DNA from: an uncultured Lentisphaerales bacterium
GTDB lineage: Bacteria; Verrucomicrobiota; Lentisphaeria; JABSQK01; UBA12247
DNA length: 64,000 nucleotides
NCBI GenBank assembly: GCA_943788985.1
Contig: CALSSJ010000015.1
Location: forward strand, 1-64,000
Direction: 5' to 3'
The position numbers were made by a program, and so were the translations under genes. The notes beneath the pieces were generated by a model. It was not told the DNA's origin. It saw nothing but the letters and a program-made list of their open reading frames with translations, and did not search any database. Below are positions 270 through 59,300 of this stretch, piece after piece. Within the stretch, counting starts at the first letter, position 1. Every line of letters starts with the position of its first letter.

Positions 270-1518
270 TGAGCACGACGACCATTTCTTCTCCGTTTGC
301 GGCAGCAGCCACGGCGCTCGCGCCGGTGCGTTGCACAAGCTGCAAAGTCAGGGGCGGGCTCGACTCGAGCAGCTGGGCTATCCTGGGCCGCGCGATGAGG
401 CCTGGCGGTTTACACCGCTGGCTCAAACTCTGACGACTTCCTGGCAGGTCGCGGGTGCGGACGCCGACTATCCAGCGGTGCCGGACTTTGCGCTGAATGG
501 GTACCGGGTGATCCTGCGCAATGGCCGCGTGGATCTGAAAGCCTCCAAGCTTCCCGAGGCTGCCTCGGTCTCTTCGTTCGCGACACTCGCTGATGCACCC
601 GTCGAGCTGAACCAGCTTTTTGCGGAGTCCGCACAATCCTTTGCAGCTCTAAATGCGTCCGCAGCAGTGGACGGTGTGGTGATTCGGGTGCCCGCGGGCG
701 TCACGATCGACGCGCCAATTCATCTCGTGCACCTGATGGCCGGCGAGGACGTGTCGGCGCATCCACGGCACTTGATCGTGGCTGAGCGTGGCTCGGCATG
801 CACGGTGGTGGAGTCCTGCTTTGGCGTTGGCACGTATGTAGCCAATCCGGCGACCGAGATTTTTGTGGCGGAGTCCGCAACGGTAAACCATGTGCGCCTG
901 CAACAGGACAGCATGACGGCCACGCACCTAGGGCTGATCGCAGCGCAGGTTGCGGGAGATGCCACGCTGCACAGCTATGCGGTTTCGCTGGGCGCGGCGC
1001 TATCGCGCACGGAGATCGATGTGGTGATGACCGCCCCAGGTGGGCATGTCGGGCTGCACGGTCTGTATTCGGCAAAGGATAAGCAGGTCGCAGACTTTCA
1101 TACGTCGCTCGATCACGCGCATCCAGATTGTACCAGCGAGCAGATGTACAAAGGCGTGTTGGATGATCGCGGGCGCGGCGTTTTTGCTGGCCGTATCATG
1201 GTACGCCAAGATGCGCAGCGTACGGCGGCGATGCAGACCAATCGCGCGCTACTGTTGTCTGATGACGCGAAGGTGAACACGATGCCGCAGCTCGAAATTT
1301 TTGCCGATGACGTGAGCTGCACGCATGGCGCGACGATTGGAGAACTCGACGAAAAGGCGCTGTTCTACATGCAGTCGCGTGGGATTGATGAAGCGAGCGC
1401 TCGCTCGATCCTGACCTATGCGTTTGCCGATGAAGCGATCATCGGCCTGCCGGTGGACGTAGTACGCCGCTATATCGAATCTCAGCTCACAGGCCACGAG
1501 GAAGGTATGACCGCATGA
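269..1518 (+). CDS. sufD: Fe-S cluster assembly protein SufD (frameshift near 320)
   Basis: EAWRFT, MYKGVLDDRGRGVFAG, PQLEIFADDVSCTHGATIG, LFYMQSRGI. ATG at 269 overlaps the sufC stop; N-terminus [10 protein letters not shown] is in another frame. Confidence 0.93.
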
Positions 1519-2764
1519 ATGCCCCGGTACCGGCCACTGCTGTTTGGGACACTGCCCGCATTCAGCAGGATTTTCCGATCCTGTCGCGCGAAGTGCATGG
1601 CAAGCCGCTGGTCTATCTGGACAGCGCGCGGCTACAACCCAGCGCCCAGTATCGGTAGTCGAGGCTGTACGTAAGTTTGACCTGACGCACAACGCGAATG
1701 TGCACCGCGGCGTACACCTGCTGAGTCAAGAGGCGACCCAGGCCTACGAGGGCGCGCGCGAGAAGGTGCGGCGTTTTCTGAACGCCGCGTCTGTCCGCGA
1801 GATTCTGTTTGTGCGGGGCACGACTGAGGCGATCAATCTGGTCTCAAATTCCTTCGGCACGAGCAAAATTGGTGCTGGCGACGAGATCGTGGTCTCCTCG
1901 CTGGAGCACCACTCGAACATTGTGCCGTGGCAAATGTTAGCCGAACGCACCGGTGCCGTCTTGCGGGTGATCCCAATGTCTGACAGCGGCGATCTGGATC
2001 AGGAGGCGTATCGCGAACTGTTGAACGCGCGCACCAGGCTGGTGGCACTCACCCATATTTCGAATGCCCTGGGTACGGTGAACCCGGTGCGCGAGATGAT
2101 CGCCGCCGCGCATGAACACGAGATTCCGGTGTTGGTCGATGGCGCGCAGGCAGTGGCTCACACGGCAGTAGATGTGCGAGAACTGGACTGTGATTTCTAT
2201 GCGTTCTCTGGGCATAAGCTCTATGGGCCGACGGGAATTGGCGTCCTGTATGGCCGCGAAGCGCTGCTCGAGGCGATGCCGCCGTGGCAGGGCGGAGGCG
2301 ACATGATCGCGTCTGTTTCGTTCAGCGGCACCACCTACAACGAGCTGCCTTATAAGTTTGAGGCGGGCACGCCCAATATTAGCGGAGCCGTTGGGCTCGG
2401 TGCGGCCGTAGACTACGTCGAAGCGCTGGGCCTGGAGGCGATCGCCGCCCACGAGGCGGACTTGCTGGACTACTTGGTCGCGCAGCTGTCGAAGATCGAT
2501 TGCGTGCGGCTGATCGGGGAACCGGCGGTGCGTGGTGGCGCGGTTTCCTTCTTGATTGGGGATGTGCACCCACACGACATTGGTACGATCCTCGATTGTG
2601 AAGGCATTGCGATACGCGCGGGCCATCACTGCGCGCAACCGATCATGGAGCGCCTTGGCATTCCCGCCACTGCGCGCGCCTCGGTAGGTGTCTATAATAC
2701 CAAAGCTGATATCGACAGCTTAGTCGCCCCCCTCCCACAGATTGCAGAGATGTTTGCCCGATGA
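1515..2764 (+). CDS. sufS: Cysteine desulfurase SufS (frameshift near 1628)
   Basis: DFPILSREVHGKPLVYLDSA then ATTQRP in the next frame; SGHKLYGPTG PLP site; RAGHHCAQP. Confidence 0.95.
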
Positions 2765-3204
2765 GCATGCTGGAACTCTATCAAGAAGTCATTTTAGACC
2801 ATAATAAATCCCCGCGTAATTTCCGGGACATGGACTGCGCCTCGCACAAGGCCTGCGGCAAAAACCCACTTTGTGGTGACGAGCTCGATCTATTCCTGAA
2901 TATTGAAGATGGTGTGATTCAGGACGTCAGTTTCACGGGCACTGGCTGTGCGATCTCCGTGGCGTCTGCGTCCTTGCTGACTGAAAAGCTAAAGGGCCGC
3001 ACCGTGACTGATGCCGAGGCGATTTATCGCGAGGTTCATATGATGTTGACCGGCGAAAGTGATGTAGATCCCGCCGAACTGGGTAAGCTGGCTGTTCTGT
3101 CCGGCGTTTGTCAGTTTCCTGTGCGCGTGAAGTGCGCGTCCCTGGCCTGGCATACGATGCATGCCGCGCTACAGGATCGGTCAGAAGACGTGTCGACGGA
3201 GTAG
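2761..3204 (+). CDS. sufU: SufU sulfur-transfer protein
   Basis: LYQEVILDH, NPLCGD, GCAISVASAS, RVKCASL. Confidence 0.93.
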   Translation: MSMLELYQEVILDHNKSPRNFRDMDCASHKACGKNPLCGDELDLFLNIEDGVIQDVSFTGTGCAISVASASLLTEKLKGRTVTDAEAIYREVHMMLTGESDVDPAELGKLAVLSGVCQFPVRVKCASLAWHTMHAALQDRSEDVSTE

Positions 3205-3206
3205 CT

Positions 3207-3644
3207 ATGCTCAAACTGGGAAGAAAAGTAGAATACGCGCTAATCTCGCTGTACCATCTGGACTCACTGGATGAGGGCGAGCTGGTGGCCAGCCGTGAGA
3301 TTGGGGAGCGCTACAAGGTGCCGCAGGATGTGCTGGGAAAAGTGCTGCAAGCACTGAATCGCGCCGAGCTGATCGTGTCTGTCCAGGGGGCCAAGGGCGG
3401 CTACCTGCTGAAGCAGCCACTTGCGGAGATTGCACTTGGTGACGTCGTAGAAGCCGTGGAAGGCCCCGTGAATCTTGCCAAGTGCACCTGCCGGACGCCG
3501 GAGCGGGTCTGCCCGCAGCAGGCCTGCTGCAACATCCGTGACCGGGTGCATCAGCTGCAGAGCGCGCTGAATGGCTTTCTCTTTAGTTTTCGTCTCGACT
3601 CTTTTACGCCGGAATCAGTAATGTGTGAGGAACCCGCGCTATGA
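3207..3644 (+). CDS. Rrf2-family transcriptional regulator (IscR/SufR-like)
   Basis: KVEYAL, winged HTH with VQGAKGGYLL, AVEGP and a Cys-rich C-terminal segment. Confidence 0.88.
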   Translation: MLKLGRKVEYALISLYHLDSLDEGELVASREIGERYKVPQDVLGKVLQALNRAELIVSVQGAKGGYLLKQPLAEIALGDVVEAVEGPVNLAKCTCRTPERVCPQQACCNIRDRVHQLQSALNGFLFSFRLDSFTPESVMCEEPAL

Positions 3645-3991
3645 TCACGAAGAAGCAAGAAGCCGTTGAAGTAGAAGAAGAGATTGTACTGACTAAGGAA
3701 GGTCTGTACGACGTGATCCGTCCAGTCATTGACCCCGACATCGGGATCAGCATTGTGGATCTTGGCCTGATCTATGACATTTTGATCGAAGACAGCGGCA
3801 TGATCGAAGTAGAAATGACCATGACCACGCCAGCGTGTCCCTATGGGCCACAGTTGGTGGGCGAAGTGGAATACATGCTGCGGCAGACCAAGGGCGTGAC
3901 CGACGTACATGTCGAGATTGTCTGGGATCCGCCATGGTCAATCGACAAGATGGACGAAGCGACACGGCTGAACTTGGGGCTCGATCTGTAA
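3641..3991 (+). CDS. DUF59/SufT-like Fe-S maturation protein
   Basis: DPDIGISIVDLGLIYDI, MTMTTPACP, VWDPPWS. Confidence 0.9.
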   Translation: MITKKQEAVEVEEEIVLTKEGLYDVIRPVIDPDIGISIVDLGLIYDILIEDSGMIEVEMTMTTPACPYGPQLVGEVEYMLRQTKGVTDVHVEIVWDPPWSIDKMDEATRLNLGLDL

Positions 3992-4330
3992 GACATACGG
4001 TATGATGTGAGCTACATGAAACGTAGCCTCTTGGCCAACCTGAGATAGGCCGCAATACTCACCGCGGTTCCTCGCCCGCCTGCGGACAGCGCGGGCAAGG
4101 TGGGCTGGGACGGTCGCTGCTTCCTGAGCCAGACGTTCGCTTCGCAGCTTGAGTACGCACAGAGTTTCGGCCAAGTTGACTAAGCCCTCTGCCTCAAGTC
4201 GCTCGTCTTCGCTAAGCTGCGCACCGCCATCCTGCCGCTCGAGAAGTTGGTGTAAGCGGGCCTCGACCCAGTGTGACAAGCGGAAATGTGCCAAATCGCT
4301 GGGGTGCTCGATTTCAAACTTCGCTGTCAT
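3985..4330 (-). pseudogene. Small helical protein fused to a truncated HNH endonuclease N-terminus (remnant)
   Basis: MTAKFEIE...LLERQD...ERLEAEGLV runs into RAVRRRARNRGEYCGLSQVGQEATFHVAHIIP (degenerate C-x-x-C ... H-x-D-H); the remainder is missing where it meets the sufT 3' end. Confidence 0.6.
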
Positions 4331-4527
4331 GGGATAGGCCCTCGCCGATGTCCGCTTGCTCGCAGGGCTCACCGGCGCTCCACTCCAAGACACCGATATA
4401 GCAGCGATAGCGGGAGGAGGCAAGACCCATGGGAGAGGCGTGCACAAGTGCCCAGCTGCACCAGCTGTGTTGTTCCCTATGCGGTTGCGGTTAATTAAGG
4501 TGTGATTTACTCCCAACTCCCGTGCCT

Positions 4528-7500
4528 ATGTTGATGCGAACTGCGCGCCCTCTGATCTTCCTGCTTTTTCTAACGTCCTCTGCCATCGGCGAGGTCGCCG
4601 TGCTACCGCTGCGTGCCCCAACCGGGAACCTCACGTTTCCGGTGGCTGCGGACTCCGCAATCCAGATTACGCTGTCGGCGGCAGGATGAGCGGGAGCAGT
4701 GGCGCGCGCGGCTGGACGCAGAGCGGGGGATTCAACTCTGGCAGCGAGACGCGGAGGACGAGCGCCTGCGCAAGTACACGGGCCCAGCCACGCAAGTTGC
4801 GGACTCCGCAACGCCTGGCACTGCCGAGACGATGATGGCCAAGCTGCGGCCCCATGAGTGGACGATTTATCTGGGGGAAGGCGAGGTGCTGCGTGTGCCA
4901 GCTGCGTTCGCGCCCGCTAGCGTGGAAGTGGAGGCTGCAGGGATCACCACGACTGCTTTTCGATTTCAGAAGGTTGCGCCGTTTGTGCGGTTAGATGGCT
5001 TCATGGGGGCGGAGGGTGAGGGAGTTCAGCCGCTGGCAGACTGGGAAATCCTGTCCGGTGACTGGGGCAGTGCGCTCGGTCATGGATGACGCGCTGGAGC
5101 AGCGCACCAGTAAGAACCTGCAGAAGAAGCCGCTGGATGAGGAGCGCAGCCCAAACTTCTACAGCCTGCTCGGCAAGGCACCGGCGGAAGGGATCGCGGA
5201 GATTGCGACCGGATATCCGTTTGCAGACAACTACGAGGCCGCGGTGTCTATTTTTAACCGCGCCCGGTGCTGCTGGGCTGACCTTTCTGCACAGCACGGA
5301 TGATCGTCTTTACCGGTTTGAGCTGCGCATTCCAGAGCGAAACGGGGAGAACTCCCGGGCGGTGCTATCGCGTGAAGGGGCGGGGGATCGTGAATTTCTG
5401 CAGGGCGCTGAATTCCAATGCCAGACGGGGCAGTGGATCCGCCTGCGCGTGGCCGCCGGGAGTGGACGCTTGCGGTGTTATGTAGATCACACCTGTGTGA
5501 TCGATGTGAACGAAGCCTTGCCGCCGGGCGGGAAGGCCGGGCTGTTTGTGCGCGATGGCGCATTTCGGTTTGATGACTTTCGCCTGGCTAGCCTGGAGGA
5601 GTTGTGGCTAGACTCGCATGCGCGACTTCGCTATCATGCGCTTGAACTGGAGGAGTTGAAGCCATTGAAGCTGACGCGAGCGCCTGACGGTGTGGCGATC
5701 GAATCCCGTGGCGGTGGGTCCTGGGTGGTGGGCTCCGAGGACGATGCTGCGCATCCGTTTGCGGCTACCTTCGAGGTCGGGGCCGAGGATTGTGATGTGG
5801 GCATTCTTCACGGCTGTCGCGCCAGTAATCGGGCGCACTCGCGGTTTCGTGTGGTCCGAGAGGGAACGCAGGAAACCTACTTTTTGGAGCGCGTGATTGG
5901 CCCGATGGTCAGGGTGGTCGCAGGTTGGGAACGGGCGAGAACCGCCAGTGACACGCTGCGATTGTGGGCCGAGCCGTACGCGGATCATGTCCGCTTCTAC
6001 GCAAACGATGAGCTGGTTCTGGTGCATGAGGGCACTGAGAATTCTGGTGCGTCCGGGCTGTATGTGCGGAGCTCGCAACCGGTCTCGGTGCTGGAGATTT
6101 CGTATCGCTTGCAGCCGACGAAGCAGTGGCGGAATAAGTACGAGAAGAATCGGGTGTTTGAAAAAGATCCGTATATGCGCCACTGGTCGAGCCCGGAGGG
6201 GGAATGGTCCCACTTCGAGTCGCAGACCTGGCACAAGAGTGATTTCTTGGGGCGGCTTACGGTGCACGTGCCAATCGTGGCCGCTGGTACGCTGCATTTG
6301 GGCGTGGGGGAGGAGTCTGATGAGGCCGAGCTCCAGTTTAGGGCCAGTCAGACTTTGGTGAGCCTTGCCGTGTCGGAGGCGGATGAGCCTTTGTTTCAGC
6401 AGGCACTGCCGCAAGGCGCCAAGCGTTTGTCGGTGGATGTCGACGGCTTTTTTCTCGAAGTGCGCGCGGACGATGCAGTGGTGCACCGGCACCAGCTGTC
6501 TCAGCCGTTGCGTGGGCGGCGGCTGCGGATCGACGGGTATTCTAACCTTACGCAGCTCGCCGTGGATCGCTACGGTGTGCAGGATACGGTGTTCAACAAG
6601 GCGCCGACCGACTGGCTGATCAATGGTGGCAAATGGCAGATCATCAATCGATTTCAATGCGACCCACGCTGGTCGCATATGAACGGTCACAACCTGACTG
6701 GCCTGGCGGCGATCTGGTCCAAGTATCGGTTCAGCGGGGATTTTTGTGTCGAAGTGTATGCCGGGATGCGGCACGGCTACTACGAGCGTTGCGGCGACCT
6801 GAACGTGACGATGCATGGCAGCCGCAATAGCCCAAGCATGGGCTACACCGCCACCTGCGGCGAGTGGGACCCGGAACACACGCAGCTGTGGTCCCGGCTC
6901 TACCGAGCCGGGGAGCAGCTCGATGAGAGCGACACCTATGCGGTGCCGCGCAGGCGCGATGGAAATGTGCGCAAGGCGCGGCACGAGTTGGAGAAGACCG
7001 GTCGCGATGTGCACGGTGCCTGGTACTACCTCAAGATGCGCCGCGTAAACGGGACCCTGACGTACTCGTTCGACAACGAGCAGCTGCTGGAGGCGCAGGA
7101 CGACGAGCCCTTGGAAGATGGGGCATTTGGGTTCTGGACCTTTATGAACTCGGTGATGGTCTCGCGGATCAATGTGGCTGCGGAAGGCATGACACCGCAT
7201 CGCATTGGCTTTCGGCGCATTCCGGCGCACGAGCTTGAGGATGTGCAGCCGGTCGAGCCAGCGGAGGTTTCGCTGACTGGCGTGGAACGGCTGGTGGCAC
7301 TGGTGGAGGACGACTGGGCGTCGACCGATGATGTGGCGCGGGCGCGTGTGGCCTGGGCAGGCAGACTCAACTCGCTGCATCCTCCGGCAGCAACCGTGAC
7401 GAACGTGCTTGGGAGTGGGGAATTCTCGCTGGATTATCTGGGAGACTCTGTGGCCGTAGCGGACGTTGTCGGCTTTCTGTTTACCGCGTCACGAAGCGAT

Positions 7501-10164
7501 GACGCACTTTTTAACTTCCACTTTGACCTGGGCGAAGGCAAGCGTACCGATCGCTACGTACAGCGCCTATGTGGCGCGGAGATTGCCGATTCACGGCTGA
7601 AGCTGCTGGGACATACAGAGGTGGGGCTAAGAGAGGAGGTGGACGTGACGGTCTGGCTGCCCAGCTCCGGGACCACACCTGAGACGCGCATCACAAACAT
7701 CCAGTTTGGCAATCGTGAGCCTGGGCTGATTCTCAGTGGGCTGAAAGGCAATAGGCCTGGCGCTAGCTACACCATCGCGGGATTTACCCCGATTCTCACA
7801 GCGCCGCCCCGGCTTGTCCAAGAGTGGTTCGATGTGGGCGAGATTAGCGGCGTGGTGACCTCGAAGCCCGAGAGCACGCTTACCACAGCTCACGAGGGGC
7901 TTGAGCAAGCGAGCGATCACCTCGCCACGATCAGTCAGCCTGGCCTGAATCGGTTTTGGGTGCGGGTGGTGGGCCCGGGCGGGCACATGACGCGCCAGAT
8001 CGCCTGGCTGGAGGAGAAGGCTGGCATTTCTGTGTTCTGGGATCCGGAGGTGTCTGACGCATTCCTGATCGAAGGGGAGTCCCGGGTTCAGGCGCGGGCG
8101 AAGCTCGTAGCTAAGGTGGCGGGCAAGAAAGTAGAGCTGGAACCCCTGGGCCCGATGCAGTGGCGGGGGCGGCTGGACGATGAGCATTTTGAGCCCGGTG
8201 GTCTCCCCGTGAAGCTGTCGTGGCAAGATGGGAGTTATGCAGATGTGTTGTCGTGGCAGCGCCGGCCCAATCTGCGCGGGCCCGTTCTTCAATCACTGGA
8301 CGGCCTGACGAAGCATCTGGTAAACTTCGACGCCATGGGGCAAGAGCGGGTGGCCTACACAGCGATTGCGCGCAAAGCCCCGCGCGGGGTTGCGGACTCC
8401 GCACATTTGAGCGTGTGCAACGGGGGCAGGTTGCAGCGGCTACGCGCCCAGCTTGCTACGCAAAAATTGAATTTGGCGAGTCACCCGATTCTTCAGTTTC
8501 GGTATCGGGCTGATCCCACGGCAAGCGTATCGCTGCGCGCTGGCAAGCGCGAGAAAATACAGTTGTCAGAGCCGGTCGGGGCGACGGTGCCGTTCAGTCA
8601 TCAGTTGCTGGGGGACCGTGAGTGGCATACTTGGACGGGAATCGTGGCGCAGACCCCGACTGCCGTGCCTTACTCTAGCAATTTTTATTCCGCTACCAGC
8701 GTTGGATTCGGCTCGTACCACAAGCTTGATCAGACTGGGCCCTGGTCGACATTGGACCTAGATGATCTCGTCTTCGGGCCGGCCGTCAGCGACGCGCTCA
8801 ATTTTACGCCGCGGTACTTTGATTACGATGGTGTCGAGACCGTGCAGATCTGCGTCTGGCCGGGGCTGGAGTCGATTGGGCAGTTGACGACTGAGCAACT
8901 GACTGGGCTGCAGTGGGAGACTGTGATAAACGATGAACCGCATGATCGTGCCTTGGTAGATCTAGCCGACGGCGTGTACCAACTCTATCTGCGAGCGATC
9001 GACACCGGCGGCCGGCAGTCTCAGATCACCTGTGTGCCTTTTCTGGTCGACCGGACAGCGCCGACGGCGACGGTGAGTCGGGAAACCCCGGATGATCCGC
9101 TCTTTAATGGCAAGGTTCTGACCATCACCTGGGATATCGGGACTGGAGCGCCAGTGGACATCGCTAAGCTGGAACTGCTGATCGGCACTTGGAAAGTTGC
9201 CCTCTCGAAGCACACGGCCAAGCTGGAGATTACAGGGACCGAGAACCGTCTGACTGTGGATTGGATCCGGTTATTGCGGCATAGAATTGATGCGGGAAAA
9301 TTTCCGGAGACCTTGAAATTTGTCGGGATGCAGGACGGGGCTGGGAACAGGATAGAGGATCTGGAGGTGGTGTTGAGCAAGCCCGCGCAGGACGAGATGC
9401 CGCCCACTTGGCTGACTCACACGTTCAGTGACGACGTCTTTCGCCTTCCCTGGCCGCAGGCGTTTTCAGAGGTTTACCCGTTTCGGAACGAGAAGAACAG
9501 CGCGGAAATCAAGACCATCCACATCCGCCGGATGGAACCCAGCTACCGGCAAGTGGCTACTGGCGAAGGAAACAAGATGTCGCTGGTTTCGCGCACGTTC
9601 CCCGAGAAGTCACAGTATGTTTCGTTTTGGTGGCGAGTGCTGGACGGGGACGATGCTCCGACGTTGGACGTGGAGATCAGTGCTGGCAGCGGCAAGGAGA
9701 ATCTGCAGGTCTGGCCCGTTGCCGGAGACCACGCGGAGCACATCTCGGTCTCCACTCGCCCGGTGCTAGGTGGTAAAGAAGGCTGGCGCCTGGTGACAAT
9801 TGATGTATCCAGCGTCATCCCAAAGGCCAAACGCATCCGCCAGATCAGCTTTCGAACGCCGGAATTCAAGAAGAAGCAGGTGCTCGAAGTGCGGTCGCTC
9901 TACGTGCATTCTGGGTGGAATGAGAAGTCCGAGCTTACGGTCGATGGCTTTGACCAGTCTGGCATCGAGCATGTGCTCTGGAGGCTGTATGACGCCGACG
10001 GCACGATCATTGACCGGGGCAAGAAAACCGAACATACGTTTAAGCTGGCCGAGTTGTGCCAGAGTGCTGAGCCTGGGCAATGGCTGGACGTGCAGTTTGT
10101 CGACTTCGCTGGGAACAAGTCTGCAGTGGTGAGCGTGCCCGCTATCCTTGCGGCGCAGGACTGA
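4528..10164 (+). CDS. Very large (about 1880 aa) secreted multi-domain beta-sandwich protein; frameshifts in the first 750 bp
   Basis: Signal-like MLMRTARPLIFLLFLTSSAIG; DUF1080/ConA-like motifs (GQWIRLRV, GKAGL..FDDF, WYYLKMRR..GAFGFW); Ig-like AIDTGG and VDFAGN motifs. Confidence 0.7.
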
Positions 10165-48218: not shown

Positions 48219-48247
48219 CGTTTGTAGGCCAGCCGGCTCCAGAGTCG

Positions 48248-49705: not shown

Positions 49706-49714
49706 GATGAACCC

Positions 49715-50104: not shown

Positions 50105-50198
50105 AGGTGGACTCCGGGGATGCTGACTCGGTCAGCGTGAACAGCCTGTGGGTGCTTGGCTGTTAAAGAAACCCCGGAACGCTGCGACGCAAGCTATT

Positions 50199-50606: not shown

Positions 50607-51263
50607 ACAGGTGTTAACACCTTATAAACGCCGGATACTCGTGATTCTTATGCGGCTTTTGGGTATTTCATGAAAATATCTGACTTCCTCCGCTATCAGA
50701 CGCGTGGAGTAGGCAGTACTGAATTCTTACACGATCGTGGAATAAATGGCAGCTGGCTCATAAGGTGCGTAACAAGTCACGGTGGCGGATCCTTGCCCCT
50801 GGTCATCAGTGTCACGGTGACGCTCAGCTTTCTCCTCGTAGTCTTACAGCTTTTTCGCGACGAGCCGCCGATTGAGGATTCTGCGGTGATCGTCCCCTAC
50901 GTGCCGATTCCAGACAAAGAGAGCGGCTTCTTGGTACTGCAGCAGGCCGCGAGCCTGATCTCAGAAGAGGACAGCAGGGTGCTCTATCAGTTCTGGCAGC
51001 GGTGATTGATGGCAGTCGAGGCGATAGCCATCGTGTGCCTCGTTCTGTTCCCCTTTCAGGCCGTAGTGAATGCGGTGGAACCACCGGTATTTGGTCATCG
51101 TTCCCCGCGTCTCGGAGGAGGGGCAGAAACCACGCGCTCCGGCTGGCTTGCCAGGGCTCACAGTCCCACCGCTGGCCAGCTACTGGGCAGGTTCCAACCG
51201 GAATCTGGAAAGAAACTTTCCACTTTCCCTAGCGTCTTCCGGGAGTACCGGCGATATTGCAAT

Positions 51264-51279
51264 TGGCACGACTCTTGCT
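51264..51279 (+). promoter_or_regulatory. sigma54 promoter of the metal-efflux operon
   Basis: TGGCACGACTCTTGCT, a match to TGGCAC-N5-TTGCW, about 45 bp upstream of ATG 51324. Confidence 0.75.
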
Positions 51280-51323
51280 CGCACGACTCACGCCCCGACC
51301 CCACCCTACACGAGGAGCTCACC

Positions 51324-52580
51324 ATGCTCCGCAGACTCTATCTTCTGGCGCTACTGATTGCGGAGTTCGCAACGGCAGCGCCTGTGACCTTACCAGAGTT
51401 GCTCAGTGAGGCCTTCGAGCGGAACCCGGATGTACGCGCCGCGCAACTCGCCTGGCGTGCCAGCATCGATGCCATCCCAGAAGCCACGTCGTTGCCAGAT
51501 CCGATGATTCGCTTCGACTACTTCGGCGAAAATGTCGAGACCCGGGTGGGACCGCAGAAAAGCCGCGTGGGCGTCAGTCAGGGCTTTCCGTTTCCGGGCA
51601 CGCTGCGACAGGCAGGCGAAGTGGCAAGCCGGGAGTCGCGGCTTCAGCAGCTAGGCTACGAGATTGCCGTGCGTGATCTGATCGTGGACCTCAAAGTCAG
51701 CTATTTCGAGCTTTGGTACCTGCGCGGGGCCGCGACAATCACGCAGCAGAACCAAGACCTGCTGCAGCATAGCTTGCAGCTCGCCACCGCCCGCTACGCG
51801 ACGGACAAGGCGAAGCTGCTAGATGTGCTGAAAGCGCAGAGCCAGCTGGCCCAGCTAAGCTATGATCTCATTGTCGTGCGTGAATTACAGGAGATCGAGC
51901 AGACCAAGATCAACGCACTGCAGGATTACCCCTCGGATCGGGAGGTGGGAGATCTTGTCTTCCCGGAATTGCATAGTCCGCAATTCGACGCGGCGGCCGT
52001 AGAAAAGGCGGCCCTCGCAGGCCGTCAGGAGATTCTCATGGCCCAGGCCAAGGTTGGCAAACTCGAGGCGGCGGTGGATCTCGCTTCCCTGAAGAATCGC
52101 CCGACATTCGGCGTCAACGCGATGTATATCGACACCGGCGAGGCGAGTTTCGGTAACTTCCCGGACAGCGGCAAGGATCCGTGGCTGGTCGGGGTGACGA
52201 TGAGTTTGCCGATCTGGCACGATCGCAATGAGCGGCGCGTGGCCAAGGCGGAACTCGTTGCGGAGTCCGCAACACTGAGGCAGAACGGCCTGGAGAACAA
52301 GACGCGGGTTGCGGTGAAGTCGGCCTTGTTTCGCCTCGAGAATGCGCGGCGCCTGACGCAGCTCTACCAAGGCACCCTCATCCCCCAGGCTAAAGCGGCG
52401 ATGGAGGTTGCAGAGCAGTGGCACGATGGTGACACCCCGGACTTGAGCGGCTTTCTCGAGACGCAGTCCGTGTGGCTTAACTTCAATCTGGCCTATCTCC
52501 GGGCCCTCGCCGACTATCACCAGTATCTCGCCCGTCTGGAGGGCCTGGTGGGTGGCAAACTTCCGGAGGCGTCGCCATGA
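51324..52580 (+). CDS. TolC-family outer membrane efflux protein 1
   Basis: RNP.V.AA, LPDP, SQ.FPFPG, LPIW, LIPQA; GAGGAG RBS. Confidence 0.9.
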   Translation: MLRRLYLLALLIAEFATAAPVTLPELLSEAFERNPDVRAAQLAWRASIDAIPEATSLPDPMIRFDYFGENVETRVGPQKSRVGVSQGFPFPGTLRQAGEVASRESRLQQLGYEIAVRDLIVDLKVSYFELWYLRGAATITQQNQDLLQHSLQLATARYATDKAKLLDVLKAQSQLAQLSYDLIVVRELQEIEQTKINALQDYPSDREVGDLVFPELHSPQFDAAAVEKAALAGRQEILMAQAKVGKLEAAVDLASLKNRPTFGVNAMYIDTGEASFGNFPDSGKDPWLVGVTMSLPIWHDRNERRVAKAELVAESATLRQNGLENKTRVAVKSALFRLENARRLTQLYQGTLIPQAKAAMEVAEQWHDGDTPDLSGFLETQSVWLNFNLAYLRALADYHQYLARLEGLVGGKLPEASP

Positions 52581-54028
52581 AATGGAGTCTTCTATTCCTG
52601 TTGTTAGCAGGCTGCAGCAGCACTCCCTACGAGGCGCTGGTAGGCGAATACGAAAGTGGCACCGAAACCACATATTTGCGGATTTCGCGTGCGGAGTCTG
52701 CAACCGCCCCGGACCCCCTGGCGGATCTTACTGCGGAGACCGCAGCGGCCCAAGTGCGCTGGGAGCAGGCTCTGGCCGTGGCACCCACCACCGGCCTTGC
52801 GGAGTCCGCGACGCCCCCGCCTGTGGAATCGCTAGCTACGTCGCTGGAACTCCCCGGGCTGGTCGCCCTGGTACTGGCGCGCAACCCGGGCATCGACGCA
52901 GCCGCGCAGGCGGTGAAGGCCACCCGCGAGAAATATCCGCAGGCGGTGGCTCTTGACAGCGTGCTGCAGCAGTACAATGCCTTCACCAAACAACTGGACA
53001 CTCGGATCGGCCCTACGTCTCACAAGGGCATGAACGCCATGAGCTTGCCGTTTCCGGATGCCCTGGCGCTCAAGGGCAAGCTGGTGAGCGAGGAGATCGA
53101 TATCGCAGCCAGTCGGCTGGAGATTGCCAAGCGCGATGCCATCACGGCCATGCACGAGGCCTATTTCGACCTCTTGTTTGTGGACCAGGGCATCGCCATC
53201 AATCGGGAGCAGCAGGCGCTGCTGGAGCAGATGATTGCGGTGGCTCAGACCAAGGTGCGCACGGATCGCAGCAAGTATCAGGGCCTGATCATGGCCCAGG
53301 TGGAGTTGTCCAAGCTCGCCAATGCCATCATCACGCTTGAGGAACAGCGCGAGACGGTGATCGCCCGCATCAACACAATGCTGAATCTCGCGCCGGATGG
53401 GGCCCTGGCAGCGCCGAGCCCAGCACCAGTCACCGCGGAGACGCAGAGTCTGGACAGCTGGTACGAAAAGGCGCTTGCCGGGCGTCAGGAACTGTTGACG
53501 CAGCGCCTGCGCATCGTGCGTACGAAGACGATGATCGAGCTGGCCTCGCGCATTGCCAACCCCGACGTGAGTCTGGGAACAAGCTATTTCGAAGATCGCA
53601 TGCGCCTGAGCAGCGGCACAGGCGAGGCCCAGCCCGCCTTCACACCCCAGCGCGAGCTGAATCATCGCCAGACGCCGCAATTTGGCGAGCGCAACGCCTA
53701 CATCCGTGAGGTCACAGTGCGCGTGACTGGCATGGAGAGCATGCTCACGGGGATGGAAGACCGGACCCGCCTGGCTGTAAAAAAAGCGCACTTTGCACTT
53801 GAGCGGGCTGAGCGTAGTATCGGCCTTTATCGCGACTCACTGCTACCGCAGGCACAACAGTCGCTGGAAGCCGCCGCCGCGGGCTATCGCGCGGGCAGCG
53901 TCGACTTCCTGACCTTTCTCGATACCGAGCGCACTCTGCTTCGGTTTCGCCTGGAAGAGAAACGCGCCGCGCGTGATCAGGGCGTGGCTCTGGCACATTT
54001 GAATCAACTCAGTGGGAAAATACGATGA
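52577..54028 (+). CDS. TolC-family outer membrane efflux lipoprotein 2
   Basis: Lipobox LAGC, RNP.I.AA, PFP..L.LKG, LLPQA, Y.AG..DFL. Confidence 0.9.
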   Translation: MKWSLLFLLLAGCSSTPYEALVGEYESGTETTYLRISRAESATAPDPLADLTAETAAAQVRWEQALAVAPTTGLAESATPPPVESLATSLELPGLVALVLARNPGIDAAAQAVKATREKYPQAVALDSVLQQYNAFTKQLDTRIGPTSHKGMNAMSLPFPDALALKGKLVSEEIDIAASRLEIAKRDAITAMHEAYFDLLFVDQGIAINREQQALLEQMIAVAQTKVRTDRSKYQGLIMAQVELSKLANAIITLEEQRETVIARINTMLNLAPDGALAAPSPAPVTAETQSLDSWYEKALAGRQELLTQRLRIVRTKTMIELASRIANPDVSLGTSYFEDRMRLSSGTGEAQPAFTPQRELNHRQTPQFGERNAYIREVTVRVTGMESMLTGMEDRTRLAVKKAHFALERAERSIGLYRDSLLPQAQQSLEAAAAGYRAGSVDFLTFLDTERTLLRFRLEEKRAARDQGVALAHLNQLSGKIR

Positions 54029-55947
54029 AGAAGCGCACGCTTTTGATTGTAATCGTGGCCGTCTTGCTAGCGTTCGGGTTCGGCATGATGCTCGGCGGTT
54101 CCGGTACCAGGTACGAGCACGCTGTCGCTTCTGCCCCCAGCCGTAAAGCGGGAGCCAGTGTCTGGACCTGTTCGATGCACCCGCAGATCAAGCAGCCAGA
54201 GCCGGGCGATTGCCCGCTTTGCGGCATGGATCTCATCCCGCTTAAGGCAGGCGTGGACGACAACGGACCGCGCGAACTGACCCTCTCTGAGGGGGCCCGC
54301 AGTCTGGCCGACATTCAAGTGCAGCCGGTCAGGCGACAGGCCGTGGTGCGCGAGGTGCGCATGGTCGGCACGATCGACTACGACGAGCGGCGCTTATCCA
54401 CGATCACCGCCTGGGTAGGCGGGCGCCTGGATCGAATCTTTGTCGATTACACCGGTGTGACAGTCGCCAAGGGCGATCACATGGTCTGGATGTACAGCCC
54501 GGAGATTTTGGGGGCGCAGGAGGAGTTGCTGCAGGCCAGCATCGCGGTGCGCAAGATGGCGGATAATCCACTGGCTCTTATTCGCAACAATGCCCAGGCG
54601 ACCCTCGAAGCCTCGCGCGACAAGCTGCGCCTTTGGGGGCTGTCCCTCGAGCAGATCGCGGCTATCGAAGAAAGCGGCAAAGCCTCGGACCACATTCAGA
54701 TCAACGCGCCGATTGGTGGCGTGGTGATCCATAAGAATGCCACTGAAGGCATGTACGTGAAGACCGGCACCCCAATTTATCAGATCGTTGATTTAAGCCA
54801 GGTTTGGGCCCAGCTGGACGCGTATGAGTCGGATCTGGCTTGGCTGCGCTATGGTCAGGAGGTGAGCTTTGAGTCCGAAGCCTACCCGGGCGAGGTGTTT
54901 AACGGGCGTGTTTCCTTCATTGACCCAGTTCTCAGCAGGAGCACACGCACAGTGAAAGTGCGCGTGAATGTGCCAAACGAGGATGGCAGGCTCAAGCCAG
55001 GTATGTTTGTGCGGGCGATTCTGCACTCTGCGGTGGCAGCTGGTGGCAAGGTGATTGATGCGGACCTCGCAGGCAAGTGGATCAGCCCGATGCACCCGGA
55101 GATCGTGCGCGACGAGCCCGGCCCGTGCGACATCTGTGGCATGGCCTTGGTCAGGTCCGAGGACTTGGGCTTTGTCAGCGCGGCCGACTTCAGCACCGCG
55201 GTGCCGCTCGTGGTTCCGGCTTCGGCGCCGTTGCTCACCGGCAAGCGCGCGGTGGTCTACGTACAGAATCCAGCCGATCCGGGCCGCTTCACGGGCCGCA
55301 CCGTCACACTGGGGCCGCGGGTGGGCGGCTTTTATGTGCTCAAGTCTGGCCTAGAGGAAGGCGAACTGGTGGTGACTCACGGCAACTTCAAGATCGACAG
55401 CGCCCTGCAGATTATGGCCAAGCCAAGTATGATGAGCCCCGCAGAAGAGCCCGCGGAAGCCGAAACAGAAATTCGCTACGAGGCGCCTAAAGCGTTTCTG
55501 GCACAGCTACAGCCGCTGTTCACGCACTACCTTGCGATTCAGCAAGCCTTGGCTGGTGACAACCTGGCGGCCACCCGAAGCGGTGCGGGAGCCTTCTCCG
55601 AGGCGCTGCAGGCTATCGACATGAGCCTGGTCACGGGCGCTGGTCACATGGCTTGGATGGGCTTATCCGCCAAGTTTGCGAAGTCCGCAAAGGAGATCGC
55701 GAGCCGCGCGGACATCGACGAGGCACGCGCGCAGTTCGAGCCCCTGAGTACGAGCATGATCGCCTTGGCGCAGCAATTCGGCACTGGTATGGCGGATCCC
55801 GTGAGCGTCGCCCACTGCCCGATGGCCCTGGACAACAGCGGTGCCAACTGGTTGCAGCTGGGTGCGGAGATCGCAAATCCCTACTTCGGAGCCTCGATGC
55901 TCCGCTGTGGTGAGGTGACCGCAACCATTGACGGGCGCCAGAAATGA
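54025..55947 (+). CDS. cusB: CusB-like RND adaptor with heavy-metal-binding motifs and a DUF3347-like tail
   Basis: WTCSMHPQI..PG.CP.CGM, SPMHPEI..CDICGM, LKPGMF, HCPMA..W.Q...NPYFG..MLRCG. Confidence 0.88.
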   Translation: MKKRTLLIVIVAVLLAFGFGMMLGGSGTRYEHAVASAPSRKAGASVWTCSMHPQIKQPEPGDCPLCGMDLIPLKAGVDDNGPRELTLSEGARSLADIQVQPVRRQAVVREVRMVGTIDYDERRLSTITAWVGGRLDRIFVDYTGVTVAKGDHMVWMYSPEILGAQEELLQASIAVRKMADNPLALIRNNAQATLEASRDKLRLWGLSLEQIAAIEESGKASDHIQINAPIGGVVIHKNATEGMYVKTGTPIYQIVDLSQVWAQLDAYESDLAWLRYGQEVSFESEAYPGEVFNGRVSFIDPVLSRSTRTVKVRVNVPNEDGRLKPGMFVRAILHSAVAAGGKVIDADLAGKWISPMHPEIVRDEPGPCDICGMALVRSEDLGFVSAADFSTAVPLVVPASAPLLTGKRAVVYVQNPADPGRFTGRTVTLGPRVGGFYVLKSGLEEGELVVTHGNFKIDSALQIMAKPSMMSPAEEPAEAETEIRYEAPKAFLAQLQPLFTHYLAIQQALAGDNLAATRSGAGAFSEALQAIDMSLVTGAGHMAWMGLSAKFAKSAKEIASRADIDEARAQFEPLSTSMIALAQQFGTGMADPVSVAHCPMALDNSGANWLQLGAEIANPYFGASMLRCGEVTATIDGRQK

Positions 55948-56075
55948 ATGTGACTGAGATGCGGGCAAAGGAATTGCGCCGGCTAGGAGCGCGAAGCGCA
56001 TTGACGTTTACCGCGGTAGCGAATGAGCCAAGCTCCCCTTCGGACCGGAAGGAACTTATAATCAGCGACTGGCCT

Positions 56076-56239
56076 TGTCGGAGCCCCGTTTTCAGGCGGC
56101 AGTCACCGACGGGGCTGCCTTCGGCTTTCTCGCAAGCTCGGCTGAGTCCGCGAAGCCTCCGCTTTGGGCGCTCTGCTCTACGGACGCTCCGGCAGCTAAA
56201 GCTGCTCATTGACTGCCGCCTAAAGATGGGACTCCGACA
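56076..56239. repeat. 30-bp inverted repeat pair (REPIN/MITE-like) between cusB and cusA
   Basis: 56076-56105 TGTCGGAGCCCCGTTTTCAGGCGGCAGTCA versus reverse complement of 56210-56239: 26/30 identical. Confidence 0.75.
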
Positions 56240-56307
56240 GCTTTCATCGCTGCTCGTGACCTCCCTGAGGGTTGTTGCTCATGGCCTGACGCGTTTAAGT
56301 AGTCGTC

Positions 56308-59300
56308 ATGAAGCCTGAGCCGAAATCTTTTCTCGATAGGACCATTCTATTCTGCCTGCAGAATAAGCTGGTGGTGCTGCTGGCTGTCGTGTTTGCGCTG
56401 CTCTGGGGGGCCATCGTAGCACCATTCGACTGGGAGATTGAGCGCTTGCCGCGTGATCCCGTGCCAGTCGATGCGATCCCGGACATCGGTGAGAATCAGC
56501 AGATCGTGTTCACGCGCTGGATGGGGCGATCACCGCAGGATGTGGAAGACCAGATCAGCTATCCAATGACCGTGGCAATGCTCGGCATCCCGGGCGTGAA
56601 GACAGTGCGCAGCTACTCGATGTTCGGCTTCAGCACCATCTACATTATTTTCAAGGAAGACGTCGAATTCTACTGGTCACGATCACGGGTCCTAGAGAAG
56701 CTCAATAGCCTTCCAGTAGGTTCGCTGCCGACGGGGGTGCAGCCAGCGCTGGGCCCGGATGCCACGGCTTTGGGGCAGGTCTACTGGTACACGCTCGAAG
56801 GCCGTGACCAGGCAGGTAATCCGGCTGGCGGCTGGGATCTGCACGAGCTGCGCAGCATTCAGGATTGGCAGGTGCGTTATGCGTTGCTTTCGGCAGATGG
56901 CATCGCCGAAGTCGCCAGCATCGGCGGCTATGTGCAGGAATATCAGGTAGATGTGGACCCAGATGCGATGCGCGCCTATGGCGTGACGCTGGACCAGGTG
57001 ATCGCGGCGGTGAAGATGTCGAATCTGGATGTTGGGGCGCGGACCATCGAGATCAACAAGGTGGAGTATGTGATCCGCGGCCTCGGCTTTATCAAAGACG
57101 TGGAGGACATCGAGCTGTCGGTCGTGGGCGTGAGCGATAATGTGCCGATCTATGTGAGGAACGTGGCCAAGGTAAGTCTCGGGCCGGCCCTACGCCGGGG
57201 GGCCTTGGATAAAGGCGGCGCCGAAGCGGTCGGCGGTGTGGCGGTGGTGCGCTATGGCGAGAATCCGCTGGCCGCGATCAAAAACCTGAAAGCGCAAATT
57301 GCGCAGATCGCACCGGGCCTGCCCGAAAAGGTGGTGATCGACTTTAACGCGGTGGATGCGGAAACAGTTGCGAAGTTCGCAATCAGCCAGGGGTTTGCGG
57401 CCTACAATGAGGCGGTGCTGAATCAGGAGGCCTGGCTGACCTGGACACGAGAGACCGCGCCAGAGTTACGCCCGGATTGGCTGACGCTGAGCAAGGTGAC
57501 GGTGGTGCCATTCTACGATCGCACGGGGCTCATCTACGAGACGCTCGGCACGCTGAATATCGCGCTGACCGAAGAAATGCTGGTGACCATTATAGTCATC
57601 ATCATGATGCTGCTGCATTTGCGGAGTTCGCTGGTCATCACGGCAACGCTGCCGTTGGCAGTACTGATTTGCTTCATCGCCATGAAGATCTTTCATGTGG
57701 ACGCCAACATCGTGGCGCTCTCGGGCATCGCCATCGCTATCGGCACCATTGTGGACATGGGCGTCATCGTGTGCGAGAACGTCCTCAAGCATCTTGAGAC
57801 AGCCGAGCCCGAGGAAGACCGGCTGACGATCGTTTACAATGCCACCACCGAGGTGGCCAGTGCGGTGCTCACGGCCATTCTCACCACCATCATCAGCTTC
57901 TTGCCGGTGTTTACGATGATTGGCGCGGAGGGCAAGCTGTTCAAGCCGCTGGCTTTTACCAAGACGTTTGCGCTGTTCGCAAGTGTGATCGTGGCGCTCA
58001 CCGTCGTGCCAGCCATCGCTCACTCGCTGTTCACCTTTAGCGCCCCCGGCAAGGCGTGGCGCGGGCGTCTACTAGCGAAGATTCCGCCGTGGGTTTTGCG
58101 GAGTTCGCGCTGGATTCTAAATGGCGTGGTGGCGCTGCTGGTCGGGGTGATTCTGACCCGACATTGGCTTCCCTTGGGGCCGCAGGCAGGCATCTTCGCT
58201 AACGGGGTGGTAGTGCTGCTGCCGATCTTCGCACTGCTGGCCTTCCTTATCGCCTTTATTAAGATCTATCGCCCGCTCTTGCGCTGGTTTCTCGACCACA
58301 AGCTGATCTTTCTGAGCATTCCAACAGTGATCGTGGTGCTTGGTCTGGCCATCTGGCTCGGCGCTGGTGCGGTGCTGGGCTGGATGCCGGACGGCGTGAA
58401 GAAGAGCAGCACGTACAGCTCGCTGGTTCATACCTTTCCGGGATTGGGCAAGGAGTTTATGCCGGACCTTGACGAGGGTTCGTATCTGTACATGCCGACG
58501 ACCATGCCACACGCGTCGATCGGCGAAGCGCTGGATGTGCTGCAGAAACAGGACATGGGCTTCAGTGCGATCCCCGAGATTGAGTCGGCGGTCGGCAAGC
58601 TCGGCCGGGCCGAAACCCCGCTGGACCCGGCACCCGTATCGATGATCGAGACCGTCATCAACTACCTGAGCGAATACGTAACGGACGATGATGGCCACGA
58701 CGTGCGCTTTCGCTACGATCCCGAGGCCACAGACCTGATGCGCAATGTCGCCGGCGAGCCACTACCGGCTGCCGATGGTGAGCCCTACACGGTGCAAGGT
58801 AGCTACAGCTGGGATGAGCAGGGCGCATTGATTCCAGACGAGGATGGCATGCCGTTTCGACAGTGGCGCCAGCCGCTGGACTTAGCGCTGAATGACGACC
58901 GCGAGGCCTGGCAGGGCATTCGTGACCCCGCTGATATCTGGGACGAGATCTTGGTGGCTGGCGAGATCCTAGGCACGACCTCGGCTCCCAAGCTGCAGCC
59001 GATCGCCGCGCGCATCGTGATGCTACAAAGCGGTATGCGAGCCCCAATGGGCCTGAAAGTGAAGGGCCCAGACTTGGAGACGATCGATCGCTTTGGTCTC
59101 GACGTGGAGCGCTTGCTCAAGGAGGTGCCGAGCGTCAAAGCCAGCGCTGTGATTGCCGACCGCATCGTCGGAAAGCCCTATCTGGAGATCGATATCGACC
59201 GCGAGGCCATCGCCCGCTACGGCGTGCACATTCGCAAGGTCCAGCAGGTGATCGAGGTGGCGATTGGCGGGATGCCCTTGACCACGACAGTGGAAGGGCG

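Follow-up and report, generated by a model that had tools for sequence, protein, structure and literature searches.

A hyper-abundant spaced dyad, TTGCG-N5-CGCAA, in the genes of Lentisphaeria and its possible reading by a dimeric protein

The genome of an uncultured Lentisphaerales bacterium carries, throughout its genes, hundreds of copies of one DNA word, the conserved element of which is TTGCG-N5-CGCAA (5-bp arms and a 5-base spacer, 15 bases in all). The word is supported as a DNA-level signal, and the chances are about even that it is the site of a host homodimeric protein that favours DNA carrying it. Bacterial lineages with genes full of a single DNA word are very few so far (HIP1, DUS and USS are the known cases), and what HIP1 does is under debate; the present word is an independent case of a different build, with the spaced dyad typical of a dimeric protein, and no published description of it was found in the literature. 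Pairs of sites 16 bp apart, dense arrays in small rolling-circle elements and the occurrence of the word in operator position elsewhere are likewise new here. The word makes it possible to test directly what drives the spread of such words, be it uptake, methylation or use as an intracellular mark.

Copies of the word and its geometry

In the window, that is, the whole stretch of 64,000 nucleotides analysed, the first-pass annotation had reported 22 exact copies of a palindrome and 13 copies with one mismatch. All 22 were located at the starts it gave, with G or C as the central base in 21 (the exception, at 33934, has A), both of its perfect 17-mers (4796 and 48741) are present, and its 13 one-mismatch copies were recovered together with seven further ones at 6065, 27613, 32340, 44030, 52732, 55059 and 59432. 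The sites are as follows, with the strand left undesignated (.) for all.

621..633: exact site; sufD, peptide FAESA
4647..4659: exact site; gene call doubtful
4798..4810: exact site, core of the perfect 17-mer 4796-4812; gene call doubtful
8391..8403: exact site; ORF of about 1600 aa, VADSA
14786..14798: exact site; outside called genes, with the near-copy 14765 sitting 21 bp before
26839..26851: exact site; C-terminal processing peptidase gene, CELRT
28639..28651: exact site; TraB-family gene, SADSA
32706..32718: exact site, paired with 32727; oxoprolinase/caprolactamase-like gene, FANSA
32727..32739: exact site; oxoprolinase/caprolactamase-like gene, RANFA
33306..33318: exact site; oxoprolinase/caprolactamase-like gene, RAKFA; 33313 polymorphic in one other population
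33934..33946: exact site, the sole A centre; oxoprolinase/caprolactamase-like gene, LRIPQ
35583..35595: exact site; 312-aa ORF, LRSPH
35816..35828: exact site; same 312-aa ORF as 35583, AANSA
36652..36664: exact site; 2-hydroxyacid dehydrogenase gene, VAEFA
37377..37389: exact site; pyruvate/oxaloacetate carboxyltransferase gene, PAKSA
45631..45643: exact site; 3' end of tilS, overlapping the upstream frame of the next gene
47091..47103: exact site; between tilS and glnII
48743..48755: exact site, core of the perfect 17-mer 48741-48757; glpK, VAESA
51359..51371: exact site; TolC-family gene, IAEFA
52259..52271: exact site; same TolC-family gene as 51359, VAESA
55677..55689: exact site; RND adaptor gene, FAKSA
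57369..57381: exact site; CusA/CzcA-family gene, VAKFA
867..59444: 20 one-mismatch copies, starting at 867, 6065, 12318, 14765, 26271, 27613, 32340, 39205, 44000, 44030, 46683, 52677, 52690, 52732, 52798, 55059, 55863, 57620, 58097 and 59432

Nearly all copies had been placed inside genes; 20 of the 22 do lie in gene calls or an upstream open frame (a count that includes the doubtful calls at 4647, 4798 and 45631), but those at 14786 and 47091 fall outside. The excess, put earlier at about 1000-fold, is indeed large but its size varies with the null model, being about 700-fold in the window against dinucleotide shuffles (22 copies versus a mean of 0.03 and a maximum of 1 in 100 shuffles). Matches with at most one mismatch number 42 in the window versus 1.17 expected, TGCG-N5-CGCA occurs there 38 times and spacers of 3, 4, 6 and 7 give 0-6 occurrences, and Rfam returned no match within the window. 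An assembly artefact is ruled out, since contigs from four runs of four studies carry identical letters over the region 26000-45900; of the 40 listed substitutions, one falls inside a site (33313, in one run).

The genome under study (G000; 83.6% complete) contains 898 exact copies, about one site per 2.6 kb, and 47 of its 48 contigs carry the word. The enrichment persists against the high-order Markov model and the codon-preserving shuffles that the first-pass annotation had recommended: a fifth-order model applied genome-wide expects 4.0 copies against 850 observed, while 721 observed copies compare with 0.8 in codon-order shuffles and 13.1 in shuffles preserving each protein. The earlier argument against a protein-level cause is thereby borne out, and the word is taken as a DNA-level signal because the protein-preserving shuffles remove 98% of it and the intergenic copies keep the same spacer preference.

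Genome-wide, TGCG-N5-CGCA has 1749 occurrences versus 142-205 at each of 15 other spacers, and TTGCG-N5-CGCAA has 594 versus 4-16 at other spacers; direct or everted arms give no peak and GCG-N2-CGC is at background, spacer 5 alone being enriched. Transversions at the G and C of T-G-C-G stand at background (1.0-1.8x in G000 and 1.0-1.3x in its relative G025), the outer arm positions tolerate change, with one-off variants commonest there, and the flanking bases are at background beyond about 2 bases. The spacer RASTY is a preference of this lineage and not part of the conserved element, the spacer being nearly free in G018, G034 and G025. No excess of TTGAC was found after chromosomal sites. 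A role as an RNA hairpin is unlikely, the arms being without covariation and the asymmetric spacer occurring in both orientations on coding strands.

Spread, origin and mobile DNA

The survey of related genomes proposed with the first observations found the word abundant in 31 of the 171 genomes of the class Lentisphaeria, with hyper-abundance absent from 167 other genomes of the phylum and 151 of a neighbouring phylum. The bacterium is marine, and it and many relatives carry hundreds to more than 1000 copies. Presence and absence differ between sister genera in five families, so that the reader can be sought by comparison of gene content.

Density was also mapped against the replication origin, terminus and foreign islands, as had been suggested. 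In G025 the sites are spread evenly over 2.1 Mb of the chromosome, terminus included (17.2 per 100 kb, variance 17.2 in 21 bins, with the last 0.67 Mb of that chromosome sampled as two tiles and the mapping confined to one contig), and the bins in which GC skew and KOPS switch direction hold 22 and 23 sites. Quasi-periodic spacing was not found among 363 sites over 2.14 Mb of this genome (p = 0.25, CV 1.11). Islands are nearly free of the word, with one site in the 86-kb C12 island.

Sites arise by substitution and not by insertion: 61 of 71 align without gaps, the gapped 10 of 71 comparing with 8.4% of control windows, and proteins have been altered to accommodate the word, at an amino-acid cost. 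In a comparison between orders, made with no matched control set, five of 122 sites are common to both. Arm-base changes among the very similar same-species contigs amount to 1 in 544 versus 0.5 expected, which gives no sign of purifying selection on single sites.

Sites exactly 16 bp apart form nine non-identical pairs at nine separate places, where 0.95 are expected (p = 2e-4 after 287 distances, the distance having been spotted post hoc), and they match the expectation for abutting dimers; in G025 none of the five pairs within 70 bp has this distance. In four contigs that share a DUF6266-like gene (two with a rolling-circle Rep) and in a close relative, the density is 16-31 sites per 10 kb once the two sites used for contig selection are subtracted; same-species chromosome contigs selected likewise (n=10) carry 0-9. 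Some small circular elements are denser in the word than chromosomes, tandem repeats supplying part of the density. One locus (L493) has four sites at 20-bp steps and one site immediately before a TTGACA/TATACT promoter, and it lacks a recognisable regulator gene. Two phage contigs hold 7 sites in 13.5 kb and 14 in 28 kb, with the spacer as in G000, and a first viral scan gave one motif-rich locus among 120. No relatives of the rolling-circle elements were found in IMG/VR, and a host search among 351 genomes of the class gave one weak match and no host name.

Possible readings and the search for a reader

A dedicated dimeric protein had been proposed in the first-pass annotation. The geometry suits such a dimer, since enrichment is confined to inverted arms at a single fixed spacing, and neither other spacers nor direct or everted arms give a peak. 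The background-level transversions at the G and C, the tandem copies beside helix-turn-helix repressor genes of other phyla (detailed below), the 16-bp pairs and the dense arrays in mobile DNA also count in its favour. The protein itself stays a proposal, no binding protein having emerged from the searches below. The reader would be a host-encoded homodimer, probably with a helix-turn-helix fold, acting on double-stranded DNA within the cell; its two subunits would read one TTGCG arm each, the arm centres lying 10 bp (one turn) apart. It would coat the entire chromosome, and word-bearing DNA might be shielded from degradation or silencing, or might segregate or recombine better. Such an advantage would draw new sites into tolerant codons through point substitution, at varying positions, and would reward small circular elements that stack many sites. 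We suggest, tentatively, that the word is a sequence-encoded self-mark, with the dimer lining the chromosome and licensing DNA for survival, segregation or recombination, forcefully enough to reshape proteins, and that circles and phages counterfeit it with phased arrays. A self-mark, if real, would add to uptake receptors and methylases a third way for words to become hyper-abundant, and if small elements do counterfeit the word, its addition may be needed to keep plasmids or other DNA in this group, for which genetic tools are few.

The gene comparison covered 76 genomes picked beforehand by word abundance, of which 31 are motif-rich, 42 motif-poor and 3 borderline. The co-occurring DNA-binding, methylase and competence genes that had been suggested as leads were sought; PilT, ComEC and DprA are class-wide, and none of these, nor ParB, LysR, methylases, AP2, RecC or Wadjet, tracks the word. 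ParB_N was found in 21 of the 76 genomes (6 of 31 motif-rich, none in G000), its two strongest matches being in motif-poor genomes, and AP2 in two of 76. Canonical ParB is mostly lost in this class. G000 and G025 have in common an HTH_17 zinc-ribbon protein (61% identity), which is full-length in 8/31 motif-rich versus 7/42 motif-poor genomes. Among five genomes tested, LysR is missing from G000 and G201 and HTH_3 gives no evident common protein; Wadjet JetD occurs in 0/5 motif-rich genomes, and no near-site lies upstream of lexA in G000 or G025. A screen of the genes that G000 shares with G025 (604 reciprocal best hits, from 2.18 of 5.5 Mb of the latter) gave no convincing reader among 213 soluble proteins of up to 330 aa scanned with Pfam and 148 of 331-620 aa read by eye, and ranking by codon bias, as a guide to abundant proteins, gave no lead.

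The main rival, which we regard as rather unlikely, is a tag for DNA uptake or transformation, as with DUS, USS or the role proposed for HIP1. A receptor at the cell surface or in the periplasm would favour word-bearing DNA, and the word would spread by biased uptake followed by recombination; small circles would then stack sites to spread by transformation. The flat spread, the turnover, the near absence from islands and the substitutions with their amino-acid cost are equally predicted by uptake-driven accumulation, and the machinery exists in the class (PilT in 75/76 genomes, ComEC in 73/76 and DprA in 5/5, with PilT and DprA both in G000). This core machinery is, however, as common in motif-poor genomes, and ComEC was not found in G000 at its 83.6% completeness. 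A second, longer ComEC occurs in 8/31 motif-rich and 0/42 motif-poor genomes (two of the eight positives built the query), but neither G000 nor G025 and G028, both motif-rich and near-complete, have it. No stand-alone HHH_3 protein of ComEA size passed in five genomes. The promoter-proximal arrays and the 16-bp pairs are not predicted by uptake. Convergent gaps show no enrichment (2.5 sites per 10 kb) and extension into longer hairpins is rare, unlike the USS pairs in terminators described in the available part of PMC5217627. For HIP1, the accessible text of PMC13756078 reports a correlation of abundance with pilus and competence genes, which favours uptake.

An improbable alternative is the methylation and mismatch-repair ratchet of Elhai for HIP1, in which an orphan methylase marks GC-N7-GC and biased repair makes functionless sites. 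The model, in the portion of PMC4390886 at hand, rests on methylated GC, and here G and C are the two least variable arm positions and one-off variants fall mostly at outer positions, as in HIP1. Against it, N6_N4_Mtase has no match in G000 and none common to five genomes, the single full C5 methylase of G000 (30-37% identical to those of G007 and G018) adjoins restriction-like genes, and the motif-rich G201 has no C5 methylase; the dedicated methylase considered earlier thus has no shared candidate in two Pfam families and five genomes. Typical methylase sites are also shorter than a site of 10-13 bases, and the arrays in mobile DNA would be unexplained.

An ordinary operator of a large regulon, a mobile-element footprint or a protein or codon effect is largely refuted and retains little probability. 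The identical word does occur in tandem in operator position, among the matches listed, beside TetR genes (4 loci), beside IclR genes (3 loci) and at a divergent CI/Cro-like pair (7 alphaproteobacterial loci), drawn from 32 operator-like loci examined, and tandem TTGCG-N5-CGCAA adjoins such repressor genes in Actinomycetota and Alphaproteobacteria. The scan of GTDB contigs behind these loci gave at least 120 tandem matches, mostly local operators and repeats, and is therefore no census of other phyla. Coding sites also favour one frame (528, 114 and 105 of 747). However, density is higher in coding (4.0 per 10 kb) than in intergenic DNA (2.5-2.7), no excess lies between divergent genes, an upstream site is shared by orthologues in 1 of 604 pairs versus 1.8 expected, the sites are not insertions, and a codon effect is contradicted by the protein-preserving shuffles. 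Neighbour profiles for CI, Cro, TetR and IclR gave weak or false matches and no clear homologue in G000.

A Chi-like recombination or self-protection signal read by RecBCD or AddAB would suit an intragenic, chromosome-wide word poor in islands, and rolling-circle elements benefit from Chi sites, but it is very improbable, as RecC occurs in 20/31 motif-rich versus 26/42 motif-poor genomes and is missing from the motif-rich G032, G273 and G245 (94-97% complete), and the present word is symmetric whereas the Chi sites known so far are short and polar and have no spacer.

Comparison with known systems

The sites of matS/MatP, SlmA, Noc, parS/ParB and KorB are dimer-read palindromes of 12-16 bp, often intragenic (matS and KorB OB are 13-mers), and number in the tens, either confined to one part of the chromosome or kept out of it. 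In contrast, the present word has hundreds to more than 1000 copies, flat from the replichore start through the terminus, with no ParB in G000, which speaks against the matS-, SlmA-, Noc- or parS-like role considered at first. REP and other inserted palindromic repeats were rejected on the background-level flanks, the largely gap-free alignments and the Rfam result.

Operators of TetR (MftR-like), IclR and CI/Cro are alike in that the tandem word, among the matches listed, adjoins such genes, and the MvfR/PqsR box TTCGGACTCCGAA, as given in the available part of PMC3592444, matches one variant at 11 of 13 bases; these are few local promoter sites, unlike here, and G000 is without LysR or a clear repressor homologue.

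DUS and USS resemble the word in their hundreds to thousands of mostly genic copies, in their scarcity in acquired islands and in shaping peptides. According to the sections available, the DUS receptor in Neisseriaceae is ComP (PMC3868556), the USS receptor in Pasteurellaceae is predicted to be ComN/PpdA (PMC12616744), and DUS are used as a marker of exogenous DNA, being poor in acquired islands (PMC7371117). Unlike the present word, USS is non-palindromic in the same portion of PMC12616744; here there is no paired-copy excess in terminators and no receptor candidate, and competence genes do not track the word.

A close likeness is to HIP1 (GCGATCGC) and the alternative cyanobacterial palindromes, which, in the accessible parts of PMC5861425, PMC4390886 and PMC13756078, are palindromic, hyper-abundant and intragenic in all frames, HIP1 also being patchy in its lineage, with GCG...CGC arms, outer-base one-off variants and an unsettled function. 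HIP1 proper is rejected: it is a contiguous octamer, whereas here two arms flank a spacer of fixed length, with enrichment at spacer 5 alone and no quasi-periodic spacing in G025. No matching orphan methylase emerged from the two Pfam families and five genomes covered. The present word also belongs to another phylum and forms dense arrays in small mobile elements. As in the class of highly iterated palindromes, it exceeds high-order expectation and occurs in all frames and between genes, without being codon-driven.

Form and excess of the word

All 22 exact 13-bp copies of the palindrome reported by the first-pass annotation are present at their positions in the window, against 0.03 expected by chance, as are the one-mismatch copies that it listed (42 matches in all when one mismatch is allowed, against 1.17 expected). 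The genes that hold the sites are unrelated, as had been claimed; they have housekeeping and transport functions, with sufD, glpK and those of an RND efflux operon as examples. An Rfam search of the window gave no match. Between positions 26000 and 45900, identical letters are found in contigs from four runs of four marine studies, with one listed substitution of this comparison falling inside a site; the word is therefore not an assembly artefact. Extra single bases at 27552, 27690, 31295, 36226, 37221 and 41854 of the window, missing from three or four of the four independent assemblies, probably stem from misassembly and interrupt or shorten genes close by.

The window is C15:1-64000 of the genome under study (G000; 4.58 Mb). 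In the complete set of 48 contigs of this genome, TGCGRANTYCGCA occurs 898 times and is present in 47 contigs; its variants top the lists of 10- to 14-mers and its flanks are at background level past about two bases. Genes were called de novo in this analysis, and 747 of the 850 S-centred sites lie within them (frames 528/114/105). Codon-preserving shuffles and a high-order Markov model had been proposed as checks, and the excess survives both: synonymous codon shuffling within genes gives 13.1 sites (20 shuffles, maximum 21) and codon-order shuffling 0.8, against 721 observed, and a 5th-order model expects 4.0 against the 850 S-centred sites. The 7th- and 8th-order expectations (79 and 305, respectively) come from models that have absorbed most of the word. 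Peptides encoded by the sites are over-represented in G000 (CELR 67 against 7 for permutations; AEFA 191 against 37).

Although the palindrome excess is real, the motif as first drawn required revision, the actual word being TTGCG-N5-CGCAA, which is enriched at a spacer of five only (594 copies in G000 against 4-16 at other spacers; for TGCG-N5-CGCA, 1749 against 142-205). Direct or everted arms show no enrichment in G000 at any spacer tested. The G000 spacer is skewed (AACTC 424, GACTC 239, AACTT 109 and ATCTC 100), with the same ranking in intergenic copies, and is almost free in three other genomes of the class (G018, G034 and the motif-rich relative G025). In both G000 and G025, single-change variants are frequent at the outer T, and those with a transversion of the G or the C are at background level.

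Distribution, turnover and placement of the sites

For 171 genomes of the class, richness was judged by eye from the counts of the 15-mer and of its reversed control. Clear richness was observed in 31 genomes (28-712 copies against 0-25), which are spread over 14 of the 27 families, and three further genomes are borderline; five families include both rich and poor genera. Enrichment is seen in none of the 167 genomes from the phylum's other classes (at most 25 copies against 10 for the control), and the highest value among 151 genomes of a neighbouring phylum, that of a genome recorded as Planctomycetia, is 37 against 3 for the control. Copy numbers are 364 and 390 in two genomes recorded as Lentisphaera or Lentisphaeraceae and 7 in one recorded as a Lentisphaeria bacterium. 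The word persists across genomes of about 34% to about 60% GC. In the motif-poor genome G009 (family f4), the reversed control AACGC-N5-GCGTT has 94 copies against 11 of the motif, possibly representing another abundant word or repeat family.

Ten of the 71 sites alignable to a paralogue span a gap (8.4% for control windows), amino-acid identity to the paralogue is 0.40 inside the site against 0.46 alongside, and, in 343 orthologue pairs, 5 of the 122 sites in G000 match the position of one of the 78 in G025. The few gaps, the lower identity and the rare coincidence indicate that the sites are made by substitution, at an amino-acid cost, and are mostly turning over. Comparison among very similar contigs of the same species gave no demonstrable signal of selection on single sites. 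Genes hold 4.0 sites per 10 kb and intergenic regions 2.5-2.7, whatever the orientation of the flanking genes, control spacers giving about 0.35; there is a single site in an 86-kb hydrolase island, and several further islands have one or two each.

Two contigs of G025, C1 and C2, are similar in size. C2 carries comEC and dprA; along C1, GGGNAGGG shows a strong polarity that switches near 1.6 Mb. In the initial 2.1 Mb of a 2.81-Mb contig of this genome, the 13-mer has a mean of 17.2 per 100 kb and a variance of 17.2, the bins where GC skew and KOPS switch sign contain 22 and 23 sites, inter-site gaps have a CV of 1.11 and no period from 5 to 150 kb reaches significance (p = 0.25). This flat, aperiodic density, switch bins included, excludes patterns of the matS, Noc, SlmA and parS type for the portion covered. 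The matS, Noc, SlmA, KorB and Chi systems enter the comparisons with their generally described features.

Mobile elements, tandem sites and candidate readers

Metagenomes were scanned for two strict sites within 31 bp, which gave 65 rows, corresponding to 64 loci; all the mobile-element contigs were found through the word itself. Ten loci belong to the species under study, with 0-9 further sites per 10 kb. Five elements of 3-4 kb (L493, L495, L511, L514 and L519) have in common a gene some 200 codons long; the Atlas clusters closest to it are for the most part viral, with some DUF6266. Their additional sites number 16-31 per 10 kb, part of this density being tandem repetition. A rolling-circle Rep is encoded by L493 and L514, and the ends of the L493 contig overlap, suggesting that it is circular at about 3.9 kb. 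Four sites of L493 follow one another at 20-bp steps, four variant sites lie in a 67-bp repeat and one site is directly 5' of a consensus promoter; in L519 the 12 sites are scattered, one overlapping a promoter-like -35 box. The G000-type spacer is found in a Mu-like phage contig (14 sites in 28 kb) and a tail-gene contig (7 sites in 13.5 kb). No host was established for the mobile elements, and no relatives of the five-element family were found in IMG/VR.

In GTDB contigs, tandem 15-mers were found in at least 120 rows, mainly local pairs in other phyla. Among 32 loci examined, four adjoin TetR genes with an MftR-like C-terminus, three adjoin IclR genes and seven lie at a divergent CI/Cro-like pair in Alphaproteobacteria; from these positions we infer repressor binding. 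An alphaproteobacterial prophage CI/Cro-like family (L197, L204, L226, L236, L241, L245 and L250) has TTGCG-N5-CGCAA operator pairs with AT-rich spacers, and the Cro-like proteins tested have no Pfam match. G000 contains nine non-identical site pairs at a distance of exactly 16 bp, where 0.95 would be expected for the frame class (p = 7e-7; 2e-4 after 287 distances), an excess noticed post hoc; none of five close pairs in G025 has this distance.

A search for DNA-binding, methylase or competence genes that co-occur with the word, as had been suggested, yielded no protein recognising it (the reader), and none of the tested families tracks the word. AP2, RecC, PilT, ComEC, an HTH_17 zinc-ribbon protein and ParB were compared across 76 genomes of the class (31 motif-rich, three borderline and 42 motif-poor), and LysR, two methylase families and Wadjet JetD across five genomes each. 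The ParB_N domain occurs in 21 of the 76 genomes, two with a canonical-ParB-like score. Chromosome segregation may be independent of ParB in most members of the class. The HTH_17 protein (138 aa; C-terminal four-cysteine domain; L338:11814-12230 in G025 and C23:52769-53188 in G000) shows 51-73% identity across orders and is patchy in the class. A second, longer ComEC (DUF4131 and Competence domains) shows a partial association: it is encoded by 8 of the 31 rich genomes, from four families, and by none of the 42 poor ones, and is absent from the motif-rich G000, G025 and G028; this paralogue is about 940 aa long with a divergent C-terminus (L420:93-2906 in G201; L421:620-3451 in G011). Because the shared-gene screen spanned 2.18 of the 5.5 Mb of G025, and completeness is 83.6% for G000, a reader may easily have escaped notice. 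DprA of the motif-poor G040 (C20:15576-15902) covers half of the model in a 209-aa frame and differs from four other genomes tested. G000 also encodes a 68-aa basic beta-rich protein (C44:93926-94132), which by eye we take to resemble small chromatin proteins.

Explanations and relation to known systems

A putative intracellular homodimer that would bind the word, its binding favouring the DNA that carries it, is given about an even chance. A tag for DNA uptake fits the chromosome statistics equally well, but the balance is tipped towards the homodimer by the symmetry and spacing of the arms, the operators of repressors, the pairs at 16 bp and the arrays close to promoters, leaving uptake as the less likely but main rival. 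A methylation ratchet is improbable, ordinary causes are more so, and a Chi-like role is the least probable of all.

Literature on highly iterated palindromes and HIP1 (PMC13756078, PMC4390886, PMC5861425), USS (PMC12616744, PMC5217627), DUS as a marker of exogenous DNA (PMC7371117) and the MvfR/PqsR box (PMC3592444) was used for comparison. The four supplements of PMC5217627 have no Lentisphaera or Victivallis entry and contain 20 TTGCG rows, of which the two examined are unrelated. In agreement with the first-pass annotation, which had matched the motif to no known signal, no description of the word in Lentisphaeria was found in literature mostly outside subscription journals. The word behaves like HIP1, DUS and USS but, by the features tested, belongs to none of them, and is a real, apparently unpublished, hyper-abundant and lineage-patchy spaced palindrome.
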